A stretch of DNA of 61,592 nt, from contig CAZECO010000003.1 in assembly GCA_964510455.1 (NCBI GenBank), forward strand, positions 1-61,592, given 5' to 3'. The stretch is from an uncultured Actinomycetes bacterium. Its GTDB lineage: Bacteria > Actinomycetota > Actinomycetes > S36-B12 > GCA-2699445. Shown here piece after piece: positions 15,811 through 30,291 of the stretch (the first letter of the stretch is position 1; every line of letters begins with the position of its first letter). The position numbers were made by a program, and so were the translations under genes. Below the pieces are notes generated by a model. It was not told where the DNA came from. It saw nothing but the letters and a program-made list of their open reading frames with translations, and searched no databases.

Positions 15811-16542
15811 TTGAGCGCCGCTCGCGGGCCCGCCCCCGTCCGCCGCAGCGCCGCCGCGCCCGACCTCTCGGCGGCGCGTGCGCGCCTGCTGGAGCACGTG
15901 CAGCAGCATCAGGGCGATCTCACCGTCGACGAGGTGGCCCGGGAGTTCGACCAGCACCCGAACACCGTGCGCGAGCACCTCGAGGCCCTGGTCGAGGGCG
16001 GCCTGGTGACCCGCGAGCGCATCGCCGGGCCGGGGCGCGGCCGCCCGGCCTGGCGCTACCGGGCCAGCCAGTCGCTGCGCGAGCCCGATCCGCGGGTGCG
16101 CGAGTACGGGGCGCTCGCCGGTGCGCTGGCGGCGCACATCGCGGCACACAGCCCGGATCCGCAGGCGGAGGCACGAACCGCGGGGGAGCGCTGGGGGCGG
16201 GCGCTGGTCGACGGCGGCGCGGGCGAAGCAGGCCTCGACCCCGCCGGCGTCAGGCGCGCGCCCCGTGGTCGGCCCGCCGCCCGGCGACGCGTCGTCGAAC
16301 TGTTGGCCGAGCTCGATTTCGGCCCGCGCGCCAACCGCGCCGACACAAGGATCGTGCTCACGACGTGCCCCCTGCTGGATGTCGCCAAGCGCCATCCCGA
16401 GGTGGTCTGCGCCGCGCACGAGGGAATGGTCGCGGGCGCACTGGACAGCCTGGGCGCGCCCTCCGACGGGGTCGCCCTCACGCCCTTCGGCGCCCCGGAC
16501 GGCTGCATCCTCGTCTTGCAAGCGCCCCGGGAGAGGCCGTGA
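15811..16542 (+). CDS. Winged-HTH transcription regulator with three C-terminal Cys (ArnR/SufR-like)
   Basis: HTH 'LTVDEVAREFDQHPNTVREHLEALV...GRGRPAWRY'; Cys spacing C-x13-C-x2-H-x28-C. Confidence 0.8.
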   Translation: MSAARGPAPVRRSAAAPDLSAARARLLEHVQQHQGDLTVDEVAREFDQHPNTVREHLEALVEGGLVTRERIAGPGRGRPAWRYRASQSLREPDPRVREYGALAGALAAHIAAHSPDPQAEARTAGERWGRALVDGGAGEAGLDPAGVRRAPRGRPAARRRVVELLAELDFGPRANRADTRIVLTTCPLLDVAKRHPEVVCAAHEGMVAGALDSLGAPSDGVALTPFGAPDGCILVLQAPRERP

Positions 16543-17651
16543 CCGCGCCGGCGATCACCGCCCGCGGACCCATCACGGCCGGCACGCGGACGACGATTCC
16601 CCGGCGCCGCCTGGTGCTTCTGGGCCTCGGTGGGATCAGCCTGCTGGCCGGGCTGAACGCGGGCCTGCTGCTTGCCGGCCTACCGGCCCCGATCCGCCTC
16701 GAACGGCTCGAGGCCGTGCACGGACCGCTGATGCTGCTGGGCTTCCTCGGCACCCTCATCGCCCTGGAGCGCGCCATCGCGCTGCGCACCCGGTGGGCGC
16801 TGCTGGCCCCGGGGCTGCTGGGCGGGGGCGGGCTCCTGCTCATCTCGCCGCTCCCGGAGTCCGCCGGCCACGCCGCCCAGACGCTGGGCGCGGCCGCGCT
16901 CTTCGGGGTGTACGCCGCGCTGTGGCGCCGCGGCGGGTCGGAGGCGCTGCTGATCCAGTGGCTCGGGTCGGTGCTCGCGGTGAGCTCGGCATTGCTGTGG
17001 TGGGCCGGGATCCCGACCGGTGCGATCCTGCCCTGCATCGCCGGATTCCTGGTGCTGACGATCGCCGGGGAGCGGCTGGAGTTGGCCCGCGTCGGCGGCC
17101 CGGACCCCGGGGCGGTGCGGCAGTTCGCGATCGCCACCACGCTGGCGGTCCCGCTCGCCGGGGCGGCGCTGCTGTGGCCCACGCCCGGCACGGAGCTGTT
17201 CGCCGGGACGCTGCTGGTCATCGCGGCCTGGTTGGCCCGACACGACGTGGCCGTGCGCCTCGTGCGGGGCACCGGGCTGCCGCGGTACGTGGCGGTGAAC
17301 ATCCTGGCCGGGATCGCGTGGCTGGCGGTCTGCGGGCTCACGCTCCTGCTGCTGGGTCCGCAGCACGACGGACCCGGGTACGACCTTGCGATCCACGCGG
17401 TCGGCCTGGGGTTCGCGATGTCGATGGTGCTGGCGCACGCCCCGATCATCCTGCCGGCGGTCCTGCTGCGGCCCCTGCCGTACCGGCCGGTCCTGTACGC
17501 CGCGACCGTGCTGCTGCAGGGCTCCCTGCTGCTGCGCGCCGCCGCGGATGTGCGCGAGCTCGGGTGGGCGTGGCAGGCCGGCAGCGCGCTCAACGTGGTC
17601 GCGGTGCTGGCGTTCCTGCTGATCTCCGTGACCCTGGTGGTGCGGCGATGA
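16539..17651 (+). CDS. Polytopic membrane protein with intramembrane His (NnrS-like)
   Basis: About 12 hydrophobic segments, 'HGPLMLLGFLGTLIALERA' and 'HAVGLGF..MVLAHAPIILP'. GTG overlaps the upstream stop. Confidence 0.75.
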   Translation: MTAPAITARGPITAGTRTTIPRRRLVLLGLGGISLLAGLNAGLLLAGLPAPIRLERLEAVHGPLMLLGFLGTLIALERAIALRTRWALLAPGLLGGGGLLLISPLPESAGHAAQTLGAAALFGVYAALWRRGGSEALLIQWLGSVLAVSSALLWWAGIPTGAILPCIAGFLVLTIAGERLELARVGGPDPGAVRQFAIATTLAVPLAGAALLWPTPGTELFAGTLLVIAAWLARHDVAVRLVRGTGLPRYVAVNILAGIAWLAVCGLTLLLLGPQHDGPGYDLAIHAVGLGFAMSMVLAHAPIILPAVLLRPLPYRPVLYAATVLLQGSLLLRAAADVRELGWAWQAGSALNVVAVLAFLLISVTLVVRR

Positions 17652-20197
17652 CCCGGGCGGGCTGGCATGTGCGGATGGGTTCGGTCGTGCTGGCGTGGAT
17701 CGCCGCGGCCGGCATGGTGTCGGTGCTGCATCGGCAGGTGCCCGCCGCGGGCTGGCTGATGGTGCATCTGCTGCTCCTGGGGGCGGTGAGCAACGCGCTG
17801 CTGGTGTGGAGCTGGCACTTCACGCAGGCGGTCCTGCGGCTGCCGGCGCCGGACCGGCGTGCGGAGGCGGCGCGGCTGATCGTTTTCAATGCGGGCGCGC
17901 TGGCCGTGGTCGGCGGCGTGATCGCCGATGCGCAGGGCCTCGTGGCGCTGGGTGGAGCGGTGGCGGCGGCCGCGGTCGTGACGCATGTGGTCGTGCTGGT
18001 CCGGGCGCTGCGCGGGGCGCTGCCGAGCCGGTTCGCCGTGACCGTGCGCTTCTATGTGGCCGCCGGAGCGCTGGCCGTGCCGACGATCGGCCTCGGGGTC
18101 GCCCTGGCCCGGGGCGCGCTGTCCGGCCTGGACCCCTCCGGAGTCGTCCTGGCCCACGCCGCGCTCGGCCTGCTCGGCTGGGTGGGACTGCCGATCCTGG
18201 GCACCCTGCTGACCCTGTGGCCGACCATGCTGCGCACCCGCATCGCCGGCACCGCGGAGCGGCACGCCCGGCAGGCCCTGCCCGCACTGGTGCTCGCGAC
18301 GCTGGTCGCCGCCGGCGGCCTGCTCGGCGGCGCGCCGATCATCGGCGGGCTCGGTGTGGCCGCGTACCTCTTGGCCGCGGTCTGGAGCATGGGGCCGATG
18401 GTGACGGAGATGCGCCGGCGCCCGCCCGCCTCCTTCGCCACCTGGTCGACGCTGGCCGGTGTCTGTTGGATCGGCGCGGCCCTGTTCGCCTTCGCGGTCG
18501 CGCTGCTCGCCTCGACGGGTTCCGCGGGCGGCAGGCTGACGGCCGCAGCCGTCGTCGGCGGGGTGCTGCAGGTGCTGCTCGGCTCGCTGTCCTACCTGCT
18601 GCCGGTGATGGCGGGCGGCGGGCCGGTCGCGGTCCGGGCCCGCAACGAGCGGGTCGACCGGGCGATGGCCCTCCGATTGGTGGTGACCAACCTGGCGCTG
18701 GCGCTATGCGTGTTGCCGAGCCCGTCGGCGGTGCGCGTGGTGGCGTCCGTCGCGGTGCTCGGCGCACTCGGCGCAACTGTCGCCGCGATCGGTACCTCGA
18801 TACGCGGGCAGCGTTCCGCGGCGAAGGGCGACCCGGCTGCTGTTCCGCCGGGCTGGGCCGCCCGTCACGGCTCGGGGCTGGCCGTCGGCCTGGCGATCGT
18901 GATGCTCGCGCTGTCGGCCGGCGTCGCCTTCGACCCTGCGGCGCTCGGCAGCGGTGCCTCGGGCGCCGCCCCCTCGGACGCCGGAGCCGCGCCGACGGGC
19001 GTCACGACCCGAGTGGAGGTTGCGGTCGAGGGAATGCGCTTCGTCCCGGACACCATCAGCGTCCCTGCCGGCAACTCCCTGGTGATCACGCTGACCAACA
19101 CCGGCGACGATGTCCACGACCTGACCTTGGAGACTGGGCAGCGCACCCCGCGCCTGAGCCCGGGCGAATCCGCGACGATGGACCTCGGGGTGATCGGCCG
19201 CGACCTGTCCGGTTGGTGCTCCATCGCCGGCCATCGGCAGATGGGAATGGTGCTGGCCATCGACGTGCCGGGGTCACAGACGGCCACCCATGATCATGCG
19301 AGTTCGGCGGACGGCGAGGCGCCGCGGGTGGACCTGATGGCGTCCCCGGGCGCCGGCTTCTCGGCCCGCGACGCGCGCCTGGCCCCGGCTCCGCCGGAAC
19401 GCGAGCACCACGTCCGCCTGGTCGTCACGGAGGTCGTCGCGGAGGTCGCCCCCGGGGTGCGGCAGACCCGCTGGACGTTCGGCGGCACGGTCCCGGGACC
19501 GGTGCTGCGGGGGAAGGTCGGCGACACGTTCGTCGTCACGCTCGTCAACGACGGCAGCATCGGCCACTCCATCGACTTCCACGCCGGCGCGCTGGCGCCC
19601 GACGGTCCGATGCGCACGATCGCGCCCGGCGAGGAGCTGGAGTACCGGTTCACCGCGAACCGGGCGGGGATCTGGATGTACCACTGCTCGACCATGCCGA
19701 TGTCGATGCACATCGCCAACGGGATGTTCGGGGCCGTCGTGATCGACCCGCCGGACCTGCCCGAGGTGGACCGGGAGTTCCTGCTGGTGCAGTCCGAGGC
19801 CTACCTGGGGCCGCAGGAGGGCACCGCAGACGCGGAGGCGATCGCCGCTGGCGAGGCGGACCTGGTGACGTTCAACGGGTACCCGATGCAGTACGACCAC
19901 GCGCCGCTGCAGGCCGGCGTCGGCGAGCGGATCCGCATCTGGGTGCTCGCCGCCGGGCCGAACCGGGGCAGCTCGTTCCACGTCGTCGGCGGCCAGTTCG
20001 ACACCGTCTACCGGGAAGGGGCGGTGGAACTGGCCCCCGGAAGCGGGGGAGCGCAGGCCTTGGGCCTGTTCCCGGCCCAGGGCGGATACGTCGAACTGGT
20101 GCTGCCCGAGGCCGGCAACTACCCGTTCGTCACGCACGCCATGAGCGATGCCGAGCGCGGGGCGCACGGCATCCTGCACGCCGGGCCGGTCGGCTGA
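17648..20197 (+). CDS. nirK: Copper nitrite reductase fused to an N-terminal polytopic membrane domain and a cupredoxin domain (849 aa)
   Basis: Cupredoxin type-1 site 'WCSIAGHRQMGM'. NirK motifs 'HSIDFHAG', 'MYHCSTMPMSMHIANGM', 'SSFHVVG' and 'YPFVTHAM'. ATG at 17648 is coupled to the upstream stop. Confidence 0.85.
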   Translation: MTRAGWHVRMGSVVLAWIAAAGMVSVLHRQVPAAGWLMVHLLLLGAVSNALLVWSWHFTQAVLRLPAPDRRAEAARLIVFNAGALAVVGGVIADAQGLVALGGAVAAAAVVTHVVVLVRALRGALPSRFAVTVRFYVAAGALAVPTIGLGVALARGALSGLDPSGVVLAHAALGLLGWVGLPILGTLLTLWPTMLRTRIAGTAERHARQALPALVLATLVAAGGLLGGAPIIGGLGVAAYLLAAVWSMGPMVTEMRRRPPASFATWSTLAGVCWIGAALFAFAVALLASTGSAGGRLTAAAVVGGVLQVLLGSLSYLLPVMAGGGPVAVRARNERVDRAMALRLVVTNLALALCVLPSPSAVRVVASVAVLGALGATVAAIGTSIRGQRSAAKGDPAAVPPGWAARHGSGLAVGLAIVMLALSAGVAFDPAALGSGASGAAPSDAGAAPTGVTTRVEVAVEGMRFVPDTISVPAGNSLVITLTNTGDDVHDLTLETGQRTPRLSPGESATMDLGVIGRDLSGWCSIAGHRQMGMVLAIDVPGSQTATHDHASSADGEAPRVDLMASPGAGFSARDARLAPAPPEREHHVRLVVTEVVAEVAPGVRQTRWTFGGTVPGPVLRGKVGDTFVVTLVNDGSIGHSIDFHAGALAPDGPMRTIAPGEELEYRFTANRAGIWMYHCSTMPMSMHIANGMFGAVVIDPPDLPEVDREFLLVQSEAYLGPQEGTADAEAIAAGEADLVTFNGYPMQYDHAPLQAGVGERIRIWVLAAGPNRGSSFHVVGGQFDTVYREGAVELAPGSGGAQALGLFPAQGGYVELVLPEAGNYPFVTHAMSDAERGAHGILHAGPVG

Positions 20198-20262: not shown

Positions 20263-21441
20263 CTACGAGGCAACGGGCAGCAGGCGCTCGATGTCGTCGG
20301 CGAACCCAAAGCTGCCGGGCTGGTAGGCGCACAACGGGTCGTCGCCGAGCAGGTCGCCGGTGGCGCCAAAGGCCCGCGGGCGCGAACCCCCGCACACCCG
20401 GCGGAACTCGCAGGCTCCGCAGCGGTCAGTCGGCGCGTCGGGATCGCGCAGCTGCCGGAAGAGCGTCGAGTCCCGGTAGATGCTGGTCAGTGGCCGGTCC
20501 TGCACGTTGCCGGCGGACACCGGGAGGAATCCGCTGGGGTACACCTGTCCGGTGTGGGAGACGAAGGCGAATCCCCGGCCGGCGCTGATCGGCAGGGGCG
20601 GGCGGCGAGGTCCCTCATCGTTCTCAGGCAGCCCCAACTCCCGCATCCGCTGCACGAGGTAGTCGTATTCGACACCGGTCAGTCCGGCTCCCTTCAGCGG
20701 GATGCCCCGGTCAGCGAGGATGCGCCGTTGGAAGCTGACGCGACGGAACGCGGGCGCCTCGGTGGTCTTCACCGACACGATCCGGTTGGCGTCGTAGCAG
20801 AAGTGCAGAACGTCCTCGGTTTGCTGCGCCCTCAGTTGCGGCAGGTGCGTTCCGCGGCCGGTGGGGACGAGGAAGAACAACGACCAGGTCAGCGCTCCGC
20901 GGGAGTGGATCAGGGCCAGCAGGTCGGGCAGTTGGCGGAAGTTGGAGGGCGTCACGGCTGTGTTGATCTGGACCCGCAGCCCCAGCTCCTTGGCCCTCGC
21001 CCACCCGGCCAGCGTGAGGTTGAAGCTCCCCTCGACGCCGCGGAACCCGTCGTGGGTGGGAGCATCGGCGCCGTCGATGCTCAGCGAGATCGCGCTCGCG
21101 CCGGCCTCCCGCAACCGGCGCAGGTTCGGCTCGTTCAAGGCGGGCGTCCCGGACGGCGACACCGCGACCGGCAGCCCGATGCCCGCCCCGTGGGCTACGA
21201 GTTCGTACAGGTCGGGCCGCATGAACGGGTCCCCGCCGGTGATGACGAAGAAGGGGGGCGGTTGGCCGACCGAGCGGACATCGTCCATCAGGTCGCACGC
21301 CTGCTGCGTCGTCAGCTCCCAGGGGCTGCGCTGCGGGATCGCCTCCGCCCGGCAGTGCAGACAGGCCAGCGCGCAGGCCCGCGTGGCCTCCCAGATGACG
21401 ATGAACGGGCGCTGGGCCAGATCCATGTGCGCCGTGCGCAT
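20263..21441 (-). CDS. Radical SAM/SPASM-type protein (TIGR04053-like, NirJ/Ahb-related clade)
   Basis: CALACLHC in 'IVIWEATRAC..C..CRA' and C-terminal 'CGACEFRRVCGGSRPRA...DPLC'. Confidence 0.85.
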   Translation of the reverse strand: MRTAHMDLAQRPFIVIWEATRACALACLHCRAEAIPQRSPWELTTQQACDLMDDVRSVGQPPPFFVITGGDPFMRPDLYELVAHGAGIGLPVAVSPSGTPALNEPNLRRLREAGASAISLSIDGADAPTHDGFRGVEGSFNLTLAGWARAKELGLRVQINTAVTPSNFRQLPDLLALIHSRGALTWSLFFLVPTGRGTHLPQLRAQQTEDVLHFCYDANRIVSVKTTEAPAFRRVSFQRRILADRGIPLKGAGLTGVEYDYLVQRMRELGLPENDEGPRRPPLPISAGRGFAFVSHTGQVYPSGFLPVSAGNVQDRPLTSIYRDSTLFRQLRDPDAPTDRCGACEFRRVCGGSRPRAFGATGDLLGDDPLCAYQPGSFGFADDIERLLPVAS

Positions 21442-21485: not shown

Positions 21486-21785
21486 TCAGGGGGTGCGGAC
21501 CAGCCGCAGCCGCCATTCCTGCGGCCCCCGCTGCAGGTACTCGACCTGAATCGCGCCGTCGTAGCGCTGCTCGGCCTGGGCCAGCAGCGGCAGCGGGTCG
21601 TGCGGGGCGATCAGCACCAGCCCGCCTCCCGGCGCGATGGAGTCCAGGGCGCCGAAGATCGTGGCATGCCTGATCGCGTGCGGGATGGCTCGGGCGTCCA
21701 GCACCGGCTCGGCATCGTGCTCGTGCCCGCAGCCGCACTGGTGCTCGGCCTGCGCCAGCGGGATCTCGGTACGTGAGTCGGTCAT
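21486..21785 (-). CDS. DUF2249 domain protein
   Basis: 'VLDARAIPHAIRHATIFGAL...LIAPHDPLPLL..QRGPQEW' with an N-terminal 'HQCGCGH'. Confidence 0.85.
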   Translation of the reverse strand: MTDSRTEIPLAQAEHQCGCGHEHDAEPVLDARAIPHAIRHATIFGALDSIAPGGGLVLIAPHDPLPLLAQAEQRYDGAIQVEYLQRGPQEWRLRLVRTP

Positions 21786-21827
21786 CAGGTTCCCTTTCGT
21801 CATGGGTCAATCAGCCTAGGATTCAGT

Positions 21828-21870: not shown

Positions 21871-22650
21871 TCAACCCAGCGCCAGCGCCGTACCGATCAC
21901 CACGAGCACTGACACCAGGGACTCGACCGCGCCGATCACCCCGGGCCTGCTCCCGGCGGGCACGGCGTAGGCGCGCGTCGCGGCGGCGCCGAAGGGCAGG
22001 AGCAGCCACGGCGACAATAGGCCCAGGCCGAGCGCGGCGGTGTGGAACACCCGCGACGCCACCGCCCACCGGCGGTCCCCGGCCTCCCTGATGAGCGACT
22101 TGACGTGCAGAACGGATCCGGTGAAGAACACCAGGCAGATGCCCGCCGCCGCCCACGCTTCGGCGGGCGGTCGGGCGTCGATCGTGATGGCCCACATCAG
22201 CGGGACCGCCAGCGCCGCCTGGGCCACCAGCAGCAGGTCGTTGCCGACCCCGCGCTCCCGTCCGGCCCGGGCCAGCCACAGGCTGGCCGACCAGGCGAGG
22301 GCGAGCACCGGCGCCAGCACGATCAGCCAGGGCCGAAGCACCAGCAGGACGGCGGCGGGGACTAGGGCCATCGCAATCCAGGGTGCTGCTGCCGACAGCT
22401 CGCGCTTGGCGAGCCGCGACCACGTGCCGCGCCGCCATCGGATCACCACCGCCCGGCTGGCGAAGAAGCTGGCCGGGTAGGACAGGAACCAGGCCAGGGC
22501 GAAGCACACGCCGATCGCGGTCCAGCCCGCCAGGATGAACACCAGCAGGACCGGGACGGCCAGGAACGCCCAGGCGCCGTGCTGGTTGGGGATGGCCAGG
22601 CTCCGCCGGCGCGGACGCGCCTTGGGCGGCGCCGACGTCGTGGTGGTCAC
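21871..22650 (-). CDS. YwiC-like membrane protein
   Basis: 'IPNQHGAW' signature, multiple TM segments and 'FFTGSVLHVKSLIRE'; start overlaps the narI stop. Confidence 0.85.
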   Translation of the reverse strand: MTTTTSAPPKARPRRRSLAIPNQHGAWAFLAVPVLLVFILAGWTAIGVCFALAWFLSYPASFFASRAVVIRWRRGTWSRLAKRELSAAAPWIAMALVPAAVLLVLRPWLIVLAPVLALAWSASLWLARAGRERGVGNDLLLVAQAALAVPLMWAITIDARPPAEAWAAAGICLVFFTGSVLHVKSLIREAGDRRWAVASRVFHTAALGLGLLSPWLLLPFGAAATRAYAVPAGSRPGVIGAVESLVSVLVVIGTALALG

Positions 22651-28800: not shown

Positions 28801-29560
28801 CGGCCGACTCCGGCACATCGGTCTGGTCGCCGAACACCTGCGGGGAAGCCACTGGAAGGTCGCAGTACCAGTCGTAGAAGCTGAGCATCGCCCCCCCCAT
28901 GAGGCTGATGAACCGGCTGCCCGCGGCGTGCGAGGCCATGGACATGGCCGGGATGGGGGAGAAGCCGAAGATCCGGTCCGGCCCGTGCTGCTTCACGGTG
29001 TGCACATGCGCGGCCGCCGCGATTTCCAGCACCTCGCCCCAGGATGCCCGCACCAGGCCACCCTTGCCCCGAGCCTTCTGGTAGCGGGCGCGGACGACTG
29101 GATCGCCGACCACCGCGGCCCAGGCGTTCACCGGGTCGGGGTGCACCCGCTTGGCCGCCCGATACGACTCGAGCAGCACGCCGCGCACGTACGGGTAGCG
29201 CACGCGGGTGGGGGAGTACGTGTACCAGGAGAAAGCCGCCCCGCGGGGGCAGCCTCGCGGCTCGTATTCGGGGGAGTCTGGGCCGACACTGGGGTAGTCG
29301 GTCTGCTGGGACTCCCAGGTGATGATCCCGTCCTTGACGTACACCTTCCAGGAGCACGAACCGGTGCAGTTGACCCCGTGCGTGGACCGCACGACCTTGT
29401 CGTGGCTCCACCGGTCGCGGTAGAACGCGTCGCCGTCGCGACCACCTACCCGGGTGACCGTCCGCTGATCGGCGGAGACCTCACCTGGGGTGAAGAACCG
29501 GCCCGCACCCACCAAGAATTCCTTCACGGCATCGGACGGGGCCTGCGGCGCGGGGCTCAT
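25862..29560 (-). CDS. narG: Respiratory nitrate reductase alpha subunit (1232 aa)
   Basis: 'DKVVRSTHGVNCTGSCSWK', 'HYVGQEK' and 'RYLTPHSKWSIHS'; GAGGAG RBS before the ATG at 29560. Confidence 0.98.
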   Translation of the reverse strand: MSPAPQAPSDAVKEFLVGAGRFFTPGEVSADQRTVTRVGGRDGDAFYRDRWSHDKVVRSTHGVNCTGSCSWKVYVKDGIITWESQQTDYPSVGPDSPEYEPRGCPRGAAFSWYTYSPTRVRYPYVRGVLLESYRAAKRVHPDPVNAWAAVVGDPVVRARYQKARGKGGLVRASWGEVLEIAAAAHVHTVKQHGPDRIFGFSPIPAMSMASHAAGSRFISLMGGAMLSFYDWYCDLPVASPQVFGDQTDVPESADWWNASYLIMWGANVPVTRTPDAHFMTEARYRGQKVVTVSPDYADNTKFADEWLNPHPGTDGALGMAMGHVILKEFYIDRQVPRFVEYVKKYSDLPFLVALREKDGAYVADKFLTAADLGDTAEGAAFKTVLVDRKAGRPHVPNGSLGFRFNESGVGKWNLDLEGVDPALTLLHAGGSKNLEVLMPRFDIGQENSEGGGVHSRGVPAVPIHTVSGERLVTTVFDLMLAQYGVGRDGLPGDWPTGYDDPAPYTPAWQEEITGVPASQAIRVGREFAQNAEDSGGRSMIILGAGTNHWFHSDTIYRTFLAMITLTGCQGINGGGWAHYVGQEKCRPVTGWAQLAFGLDWQRPARQMIGTAFWYVNTSQWRYDRLGADLLASPLGEGRFKGMAMMDTLAQSARSGWMPSFPSFNRNPLQITADAKAAGQPVAQYITEQLKSGDLKFAVEDPDAPENWPRVLTVWRANLLGSSSKGNEYFLKHLLGTDHSVRADETPETERPKDVTWRDDEPIGKLDLLVSIDFRMTSTGLFGDILLPAATWYEKHDLSSTDMHPYVHAFTPAIDPPWETRSDYEIFQSLGRAVSTLAEGHLGVEQDVMSIPLTHDTPDAMAVPGGVVRDWRTGEVDLIPGATAPKFIPVERDYTAIGAKMSALGPLLDTVGTNHKAVAVNTSPEVALLARINGVIPSGPAAGRPALVTDVQACEAILALSGTTNGRVAVEGFQDLERRTGQPMAFLAQEHEGKRITFADTQARPVPVITSPEWSGSEHGGRRYTAFAINVEHLKPWHTLTGRQHFFLDHDWMSEVGEQLPTFRPPLNMHRLYGDQGTGAGREVTVRYLTPHSKWSIHSEYQDNLFMLSLSRGGPDLWMSPQDAEAIGVKDNDWIEAYNRNGVVVARAIVSHRMPAGTVYMYHAKDRTVDVPQAETSGKRGGIHNSLTRLLIKPTHVIGGYAQLTFAMNYLGPTGNQRDEITVIRRRSQDVTY

Positions 29561-30291
29561 TCGGGACTCCTCATCGTGATCGTACGAACGGGCCGCTGAT
29601 CGCTGCGGCGCAGGTGGGCCGTGCAAACGCCCGGCCGAGGGAAGACGTCGAACCGCTCCAACTCCACCGGCTGCCCGCTGGCCTCCAGCAGTTGTAGCAG
29701 CAGGGCGGCATGGATGTCGCAGATCACGGGCCGATCCGCGACCAAGTCCGCGTAGGGGCACGACCGCAGATCGATCCGGTCGCCCAGCGGGGTGACGGTC
29801 GCCTGGAAGCCCAGGGCGGCCAGCGAATCGGCCGCCGCGAGCACGGCATCGTCCGCGCTCTGCGCGGGCCGGGGACGGTGATCCGGCTCGAGCTGCGCAG
29901 CCCAACGGCTGGCGGCTTCATGCGCAAGCGCCGCGGAGTCCGCACCCTGCAGCGCGTCCACCAGGGCGTCGGCGAGCTGCTTGCGCTGGCGCATGGCTTC
30001 GGTCTCCACCGCCCGGTACAGCCACGGCGGTCGCCCGCGGCCGACGGACCGGCCCTGCTCCCGCGTGATCCGGCCGGTTGCGAGGAGCAGGTCGAGGTGC
30101 GGACGGACGGTATTGGCGTGCAGTCCTGTCGCTGCGCAGATGCCGTCCATGGGGATCGGCGCGCCGGCCTCGGCGATCGCCCGGAAGACCGCGTCGCGTG
30201 AGGAGGACGTCTTTTCCTGGCCTCCGCTGTGGCTGATCCTGCCGAGCCGCGAAAGCGTCCTGCCGATCGCTGCGGCTGAGGCGGGGGGCAC
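29557..30291 (-). CDS. Second ArnR/SufR-like winged-HTH regulator with three C-terminal Cys
   Basis: 'GLHANTVRPHLDLL...GRGRPPWLY'; Cys spacing C-x12-C-x2-H-x28-C; stop overlaps the narG start; start codon uncertain. Confidence 0.8.
   Translation of the reverse strand: MPPASAAAIGRTLSRLGRISHSGGQEKTSSSRDAVFRAIAEAGAPIPMDGICAATGLHANTVRPHLDLLLATGRITREQGRSVGRGRPPWLYRAVETEAMRQRKQLADALVDALQGADSAALAHEAASRWAAQLEPDHRPRPAQSADDAVLAAADSLAALGFQATVTPLGDRIDLRSCPYADLVADRPVICDIHAALLLQLLEASGQPVELERFDVFPRPGVCTAHLRRSDQRPVRTITMRSPE

Follow-up and report, generated by a model that had tools for sequence, protein, structure and literature searches.

Where does a copper nitrite reductase built into the membrane of an actinobacterium obtain its electrons, and how does a host without Nor or Hmp tolerate the nitric oxide (NO) that it makes? 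When NirK reduces nitrite in Actinomycetota, among them genera of soil, freshwater, and skin and genera related to pathogens, NO is the product. The NirK membrane domain has carried the label "function unknown" since at least 2016, and the function of the NO-resistance protein NnrS, a membrane protein with heme and copper, has been open since 2002. Both matters are raised by a three-gene operon within 61,592 nucleotides of DNA from an uncultured Actinomycetes bacterium (assembly GCA_964510455.1, contig CAZECO010000003.1), the whole of which is referred to here as the window. The operon encodes a winged-helix regulator, a polytopic membrane protein (P1), and a fusion protein (P2) in which a membrane domain (P2TM) precedes a cupredoxin and a NirK core. 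The answer put forward, tentatively and with rather less than even confidence, is that P1 and P2TM form a heme-bearing membrane redox unit wiring NirK to the quinol pool. Its value lies in being a concrete, testable hypothesis, not a demonstrated function.

The membrane modules and the enzyme they carry

The open reading frame coordinates show three plus-strand genes joined by stop/start overlaps in the order regulator, P1, P2. The stop of the regulator and the GTG start of P1 share the sequence GTGA, and the stop of P1 and the ATG start of P2 share ATGA, so that a polytopic partner stands directly upstream of the NirK fusion. The original prediction had described a NirK with an extra type-1 copper (T1Cu) cupredoxin and about 12 transmembrane helices (TM), coupled to a second polytopic protein; this is confirmed by the ATGA overlap and by a count of 12+1 helices in P2.

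Neither P1 nor residues 1–430 of P2 matched any family in Pfam or NCBIfam. AlphaFold models built on family alignments contain 12 helices in P1 (pLDDT 93, pTM 0.90) and, in residues 1–440 of P2, 12 helices with a thirteenth at 408–428 (pLDDT 87, pTM 0.87). The original prediction had named NnrS and heme-copper oxidase (HCO) folds for comparison by Foldseek; against the Protein Data Bank (PDB), both models match HCO subunit I/NorB. For P1, the only credible matches were HCO subunit I, NorB, and CcoN (probability 1.0, TMq 0.59–0.68); for P2TM, they were cbb3 CcoN, cNOR NorB, and ba3/aa3 subunit I (probability 1.0, TMq 0.51–0.61). The cNOR chains 3o0r_B and 4xyd_A are among these matches, and all other PDB entries had TM <0.3 with either module. 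Both modules are thus predicted, from their models, to share the 12-helix fold of HCO subunit I/NorB.

Lysine and arginine residues are distributed inside:outside at 14:3 in P1 and 18:2 in P2, which by the positive-inside rule places the N-terminus inside. With this topology, P1 ends inside, and in P2 the helix TM13 leads across the membrane, so that the cupredoxin and NirK lie outside, as a NirK has to.

At the level of sequence, P1, P2TM, and the family members searched gave no match to Pfam COX1. Searches of PDB sequences with a P1 profile, an NnrS profile, and the P2 membrane domain returned chance matches only, with no solved NnrS among the entries. The comparison with HCO superfamily subunit I (PF00115) concerns the modelled fold, with TMq of up to 0.68, and the placement of individual residues. 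Conservation of these was assessed in 150 sequences for P1 (P1 itself and 149 cluster representatives that are ≤50% identical to each other) and in 122 sequences for the P2 membrane domain; residue depths are those of helix positions only.

In P1, three histidines are close to invariant: H61 (143/143), H286 (147/149), and H300 (147/147). H61 on TM2 and H286 on TM10 lie in the outer third of the membrane, whereas H300, at depth 0.29 along its helix as against 0.74 for H286, is near the cytoplasmic face. It is level there with two charged motifs, E77/R78 (each 145/146) and E178 (149/149), R179 (148/149), and E181 (142/149, plus 6 Asp). D236 (147/149) and R333 (147/147) are conserved to the same degree. 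In the P2 membrane domain, H40 on TM2 (120/121) and H170 on TM6 (122/122) occupy the outer third, and H57 on TM2 (107/121, or 88%, otherwise Tyr) and H113 on TM4 (121/122) lie deeper. H28 is present in 114/121 sequences (94%), and the motif TLWPTMLRT is almost invariant. His conservation, one of the checks attached to the original prediction, which unconserved histidines would have helped to refute, has thus come out strongly in both modules. That prediction had further proposed a repeated H-x(n)-G-(F/W/A) motif common to the two. The histidines concerned (P1 H61 and H286; P2 H40 and H170) are invariant as described, but a shared repeat is not demonstrable: P1 and P2TM show no significant sequence homology (E=1.6 by BLASTP; 6% and 12% probability by hhalign), and although the better of the two hhalign alignments is collinear over TM5–TM10, it is not significant. 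Direct homology is accordingly not claimed, and the common motif is treated as a resemblance only.

In oxidases and NO reductases, the low-spin heme is held by histidines of TM2 and TM10 at outer-leaflet depth. By the mapping adopted here, H61 and H286 of P1 would occupy the same helices at the same depth as these ligands. The remainder of the canonical HCO set of six histidines (TM2, TM6, the TM7 His pair, and two on TM10) is found in neither module. P1 has a single TM10 His at heme depth, none on TM6, and no TM7 pair, and hence lacks the CuB/FeB histidines and the high-spin heme His; P2TM has histidines on TM2, TM4, and TM6 but none on TM7 or TM10. Nor does either module contain a TM6/TM7/TM10 set matching the binuclear centre of cNOR/qNOR, which comprises the heme b3 His and the FeB ligands (three His and Glu). 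These missing sets exclude an oxidase- or NOR-type binuclear centre in both modules, and the lack of histidines for a CuB/FeB or high-spin heme site argues for electron transfer over catalysis. Judged by the defining residues in its sequence, neither module is a member of HCO subunit I, and P2TM is best described as an orphan with the same predicted fold as P1.

The enzyme portion is far more conventional. P2 residues 466–845 find their best match (4e-51) in 2dv6, the three-domain NirK of Hyphomicrobium denitrificans (HdNIR), followed by 6tfd, also of HdNIR, and by dozens of copper nitrite reductase (CuNiR) structures. The P2 cupredoxin aligns with the N-terminal cupredoxin of 2dv6, its copper loop CSIAGHRQMGM being almost identical to CSIAGHRQAGM of HdNIR, and its ligand columns are ≥90% conserved. 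Within the NirK core, the T1Cu ligands H640/C680/H688/M693 are present, align with 2dv6, and occupy columns that are likewise ≥90% conserved; the 2dv6 alignment and the motifs also identify the type-2 copper (T2Cu) ligands H645/H679/H830 and the catalytic residues D643 and H778. The core motifs are HSIDFH, YHCSTMPMSMHIANGM, SSFHVVG, and VTHAMS, with the T1Cu ligands contained in the first two and H778 falling in the clade II motif SSFHV. The NCBIfam equivalog TIGR02376, a model built on clade I-type enzymes, matches the core at 1.4e-46 and 159 bits, below its cut-off of 296. From its sequence, the P2 core is read as a clade II NirK that has diverged yet is complete. HdNIR resembles P2 in joining an N-terminal cupredoxin to NirK, with all copper-binding and catalytic residues in register; unlike P2, it is soluble and periplasmic, with neither a membrane domain nor a P1 partner.

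Synteny and natural fusions of P1 and P2

A scan of one genome per species recovered 588 P1 relatives, and the locus counts that follow refer to the best 80 of these 588. All 80 loci are labelled Actinomycetota with the exception of one metagenome-assembled genome labelled Dehalococcoidia, and genera represented include Mycobacterium, Streptomyces, Micromonospora, Nocardioides, Cryobacterium, Arthrobacter, Sanguibacter, and Rhodococcus. A P2-type membrane domain directly follows P1 in 79/80 loci; a cupredoxin then follows in 73/80 and NirK in 71/80, with most of the loci lacking a cupredoxin or NirK explained by contig ends. A Micromonospora P2-type membrane domain (L032:7341-8552) carries an in-frame stop within its tblastn match and may be a pseudogene or reflect a sequencing error.

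Upstream of the module, a regulator is encoded on the same strand in 63/80 loci, and a DUF2249 gene, usually divergent and upstream, adjoins the module in 65/80. Beside the DUF2249 gene, 44/80 loci contain a match to the hemerythrin (HHE) domain; one such locus checked in Pfam (L035:5230-6060, minus strand) encodes a single hemerythrin–DUF2249 fusion of ~276 amino acids. Both DUF2249 genes of the source genome lack a hemerythrin part. Beyond four gene families, none recurs in >9/80 loci when the neighbourhoods are clustered with a GC1>GC2 filter, which removes antisense open reading frames of high-GC DNA. In particular, no conserved Nor, copper chaperone (Sco/PCuAC-type), or donor gene, whether for a cupredoxin, a cytochrome c, or another carrier, was found near the operon in the 80 loci. 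The TIGR04053 radical SAM and YwiC genes that neighbour the module in the window were considered as conserved companions and rejected, since they lie beside it in only 2/80 loci and 1/80, respectively.

Among distant P1 representatives, the same parts also occur fused in other orders. P1 is joined to P2TM, with a separate cupredoxin–NirK gene following, in P0404/L089, whose cluster includes a near-identical Actinomyces sp. protein, and in P0397, whose cluster includes a protein from Micrococcales KH10. In Brachybacterium vulturis (P0373), and in P0395 and P0402, P1 is instead fused through one helix to the cupredoxin and NirK, with no P2-type domain; the B. vulturis operon runs from DUF2249, then the regulator, to the fusion. 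A further protein, P0500, from a contig of 57.6% G+C, joins P1 through a helix to a cytochrome c. In both the P1–cupredoxin–NirK and the P1–cytochrome c fusions, the extra helix positions a one-electron carrier at P1's outer face; a single helix (TM13) occurs whatever the architecture. The P1–cytochrome c gene (L087:2399-4815) is followed by two proteins of ~143 amino acids with weak matches to the first four COX1 helices and to DUF2871; adjacent genes encode an MFS transporter, a nitronate monooxygenase, and two Crp/Fnr regulators.

Permutations of this kind are classic (Rosetta-stone) evidence for a single complex. Together with the 79/80 synteny, the natural fusions support the view that P1 and the P2 membrane module behave as one unit, and across these sequences regulator–P1–P2 is the standard nirK operon of actinobacteria, in which it is widespread. 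On this point the original prediction, which had the two membrane domains forming one largely uncharacterised unit, stands as to the unit and as to function; the fusion architecture itself had already been published in 2016–2017 (PMC4770552, PMC5338063). Passages of Decleyre 2016 (PMC4770552) describe a ~900-amino-acid NirK of Propionibacterium (P. acnes) with a 400-residue transmembrane domain, its function given as unknown, and a CX4HX4M cupredoxin, and a passage of PMC5338063 gives 882 amino acids and 13 helices for NirK of Corynebacterium pseudotuberculosis. As far as these passages go, the long enzymes (~880–990 amino acids) of Propionibacterium/Cutibacterium acnes and C. pseudotuberculosis share with P2 a membrane domain of ~400–500 residues with 13 predicted helices, the CX4HX4M cupredoxin, and a clade II core; P2 does not differ from them in kind and is another member. 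Homologous copies of the same fusion occur in Streptomyces, Intrasporangium, Nocardioides, and Nanopelagicales, among others. The searchable literature yielded nothing on the P1 partner, on the oxidase-like fold, or on the fusion variants, and the passages of PMC4770552 and PMC5338063 do not mention them. What is added here is the pair of HCO-like fold predictions, the His invariance, the P1–P2 synteny and fusions, and the link, at best remote, of P1 to NnrS.

Electron supply, nitric oxide, and copper

In the proposed mechanism, P2 would be a copper nitrite reductase embedded in the cell membrane, on whose outer side its cupredoxin and NirK core would lie, and P1 and P2TM would be very divergent 12-helix modules of the HCO subunit I fold that have lost the binuclear centre and kept invariant histidines on central helices. 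The outer His pairs would bind heme b—H61/H286 (TM2/TM10) in P1, in the manner of the low-spin heme of oxidases and NO reductases, and H40/H170 (TM2/TM6) in P2. Electrons would pass from menaquinol to the P1/P2TM unit, then to the tethered cupredoxin, and from T1Cu to T2Cu of NirK. Such a quinol:nitrite oxidoreductase would work independently of carriers, in bacteria that lack soluble periplasmic ones. We infer heme binding, quinol oxidation, and this direction of electron flow from the electron-transfer-type ligand sets, the carriers fused at the outer face, the operon's lack of other donor genes, monoderm biology, and the precedents of qNOR and cytochrome bo3, in which electrons move from quinol to a low-spin heme b within the HCO fold. 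If the wiring to quinol is true, the operon would encode a new type of respiratory nitrite reductase complex. With an oxidase-like second module that travels with the enzyme, several fusion orders, and a cytochrome c relative, the questions posed at the outset become direct experiments.

Several observations weigh against this wiring. The remote NnrS similarity of P1, its NnrS-like neighbours, and the hemerythrin–DUF2249 companion point to NO stress, not electron supply. NnrS also works in a bacterium without NirK, Vibrio cholerae (PMC3345576). A simple outer-face path from quinol through heme to copper does not account for H300 and the invariant charged residues near P1's cytoplasmic face, nor for the deeper H57/H113 pair of P2. 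Moreover, the bcc complex could be the actual donor.

The alternative that survives best, possible though on balance unlikely, is that P1, and perhaps P2TM, is the actinobacterial counterpart of NnrS: a heme (possibly copper) protein beside an NO source. Such a protein would trap, reduce, or otherwise neutralise NO, or protect the iron pool, and so take the place of the missing Nor and Hmp. In V. cholerae, NnrS contributes to NO resistance, although how it acts at the molecular level is unknown (PMC3345576), which counts against this reading; it belongs to the core of NO regulons (PMC1274295). The absence of nor, hmp, and nosZ from the window, which the original prediction had remarked on, extends to the source assembly (3.9 Mb, 97% complete, fragmented into 526 contigs). 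Its one COX1-family gene lies beside a CuA subunit and is ctaD-like; since NorB and qNor share a Pfam family with COX1, the search would have picked them up. The assembly contains no Globin-family (Hmp) gene; its one truncated globin, encoded elsewhere in the genome, could deal with NO.

Gene neighbourhoods speak for an NnrS-like role. The nirK and DUF2249 genes that accompany rhizobial NnrS are the same companions as those of the actinobacterial module, hemerythrin–DUF2249 is present at 44/80 loci, and the operon's regulator resembles Fe-S regulators of the SufR/ArnR type (ArnR: PMC12343034). On the Rhizobium phaseoli plasmid pRphaR744b (3750-8837), a canonical NnrS gene stands between nirK and a set consisting of DUF2249, a hypothetical protein, DUF2249, and an Fe-S assembly factor. 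P1 differs from NnrS in that it nearly always accompanies the NirK fusion; NnrS, by contrast, occurs without NirK as well.

Canonical NnrS genes beside nirK on rhizobial and Phaeobacter plasmids provided a 14-sequence profile, whose alignment has as invariants H65, H282, H309, H331, and GGRIxPSFTxNW (R. phaseoli numbering). Compared with it by hhalign, P1 reached a probability of 0.1% with a first, shallower profile and at most 1% with a 111-sequence profile. The 1%-probability alignment is nonetheless full-length and collinear: it pairs VHGxLMxxGF with WHAHEMLFGF, sets GER against GGR on TM6, and aligns the two proteins' first TM10 histidines, so that H61 falls on H65 and H286 on H309. In it, H282, the NnrS TM9 His, has no matching His in P1, and H300 is not aligned to H331; the GHTGR motif of NnrS is also missing from P1. 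The likeness comprises 12 helices, His motifs at equivalent places on TM2 and TM10, and G-x-R on TM6, the motifs being those of this 1%-probability alignment. Sub-threshold matches to Pfam NnrS (PF05940) recur, in 6/43 and 7/111 P1-family members (best E 2.8e-4), and the P1-type domain of P0395 scores 25.4 bits, its residues 27–330 covering positions 46–359 of the 371 in the profile. The cut-off of 28 bits was never reached by the P1-family members searched, the window P1 gave no PF05940 match, and neither did the P2 membrane domain in 26 members. Searches of P1 and P2TM by hmmsearch against the 14-sequence profile yielded noise only. A P1 profile search of 1.84 billion representatives returned 2755 clusters at E≤1e-3, of which the best 150, all strong, did not reach NnrS. 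P1 is probably an NnrS-like protein, at best a remote one; as family membership, the NnrS relation raised by the original prediction fails at the Pfam threshold. The predicted fold, being that of NorB, would suit NO chemistry, but neither module has binuclear NOR-type ligands, and bis-His hemes are poor NO catalysts.

Wiring to quinol and NnrS-like NO handling are not mutually exclusive. A bolder proposal that joins them, and which must be called doubtful, is that P1 and P2TM are unrecognised cofactor-bearing offshoots of the HCO fold, with P1 bridging to NnrS, and that together with the cupredoxin and NirK they form one self-sufficient menaquinol:nitrite oxidoreductase. The histidines at two depths (H61/H286 and H300 in P1; H40/H170 and H57/H113 in P2) could even reflect transmembrane electron transfer or a second, NO-directed site. 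If it is true that P1 bridges to NnrS within a cofactor-bearing unit, it would provide the first mechanistic handle on NnrS.

Outer-face histidines need not bind heme. Those of P2 (H28/H40/H170) and P1 (H61/H286) might instead bind copper and pass it to the cupredoxin–NirK portion, filling its three extracytoplasmic sites. Their invariant clustering at that face would fit such a role, as would the lack of a recurring Sco/PCuAC-type chaperone near the operon in the 80 loci and the reported copper content of NnrS (Bartnikas 2002, in the form in which PMC3345576 cites it). Copper delivery is nevertheless improbable: the P1–cytochrome c fusion makes no sense for a copper chaperone, the 12-helix oxidase fold is not a known scaffold for one, and stoichiometric fusion to the enzyme suggests a permanent partner, not an assembly factor. 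Least probable of all is a mainly structural role, in which the modules would do no more than anchor and organise the NirK trimer or hexamer in a cell without an outer membrane and the conserved residues would serve folding and packing. Monoderms must tether extracytoplasmic enzymes, and TM13 is present in every architecture, but a lone helix or a lipoprotein anchor would suffice for that. Moreover, both 12-helix modules persist, with invariant His, Glu, and Arg, across representatives ≤50% identical to each other, and the cytochrome c fusion argues for a redox role.

Genomic setting of the operon

The window is high-GC DNA (~66%–76% G+C). On the opposite strand, and converging on the 3′ end of P2, are genes for a TIGR04053 radical SAM/SPASM protein, DUF2249, a YwiC-like protein, and narIJHG, beyond which lie an MFS transporter, a SLAC1/TehA-like channel, and molybdenum cofactor genes. 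The nar, transporter, channel, and cofactor genes mark the setting as a nitrate-respiration island.

Table 1. Features of the nirK operon and of its surroundings, by position in the window.
Feature	Position	Strand	Basis
Winged-helix regulator, ArsR/SufR/ArnR-like, 243 amino acids, first operon gene	15811..16542	+	Pfam HTH_20/HTH_IclR/MarR_2, weak NCBIfam SufR match, residues 32–201
P1, 370 amino acids, 12-helix membrane protein, predicted HCO-subunit-I-like fold, remote NnrS-like	16539..17651	+	AlphaFold, Foldseek
P1 His61 codon, outer third of TM2	16719..16721	+	
P1 TM6 motif G-E178-R179-L-E181, close to cytoplasmic face	17070..17081	+	
P1 His286 to His300, TM10, outer and inner, 14 residues apart	17394..17438	+	
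P2, 849 amino acids: 12+1 membrane helices, type-1 Cu cupredoxin, NirK core	17648..20197	+	
P2 residues 1–430: predicted 12-helix membrane domain (P2TM) and TM13 (residues 408–428)	17648..18937	+	AlphaFold, Foldseek
P2 cupredoxin domain, type-1 Cu ligands H490, C524, H529, M534	18983..19267	+	Pfam Cupredoxin_1 3e-8
P2 NirK core, two cupredoxin-like domains with T1Cu and T2Cu sites, stop codon included	19373..20197	+	TIGR02376, CuNiR structures
Radical SAM/SPASM gene, related to heme b synthase AhbD	20263-21426	-	TIGR04053, 458 bits
DUF2249 protein, 105 amino acids, in converging nar/radical SAM operon downstream	21486..21803	-	Pfam DUF2249 1.9e-25
YwiC-like membrane protein, between nirK and narI	21871-22608	-	
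Second regulator paralogue, just upstream of narG, 28% identical to nirK-operon regulator	29557-30291	-	

A second, diverged copy of the whole module (radical SAM, DUF2249, regulator, P1, and P2) is present on contig C1 of the same assembly at ~43.6–52.0 kb. Its identity to the window copy is 62% for P1, 57% for the P2 membrane domain, and 83% for NirK. Fragments of the module that are 84%–97% identical to the window copy lie on the small contigs C349, C363, and C452. The extra copies are either true paralogues and strain variants or, in part, contamination in the 526-contig assembly. Further paralogues of the nirK-operon regulator are encoded on contigs C1 and C7.

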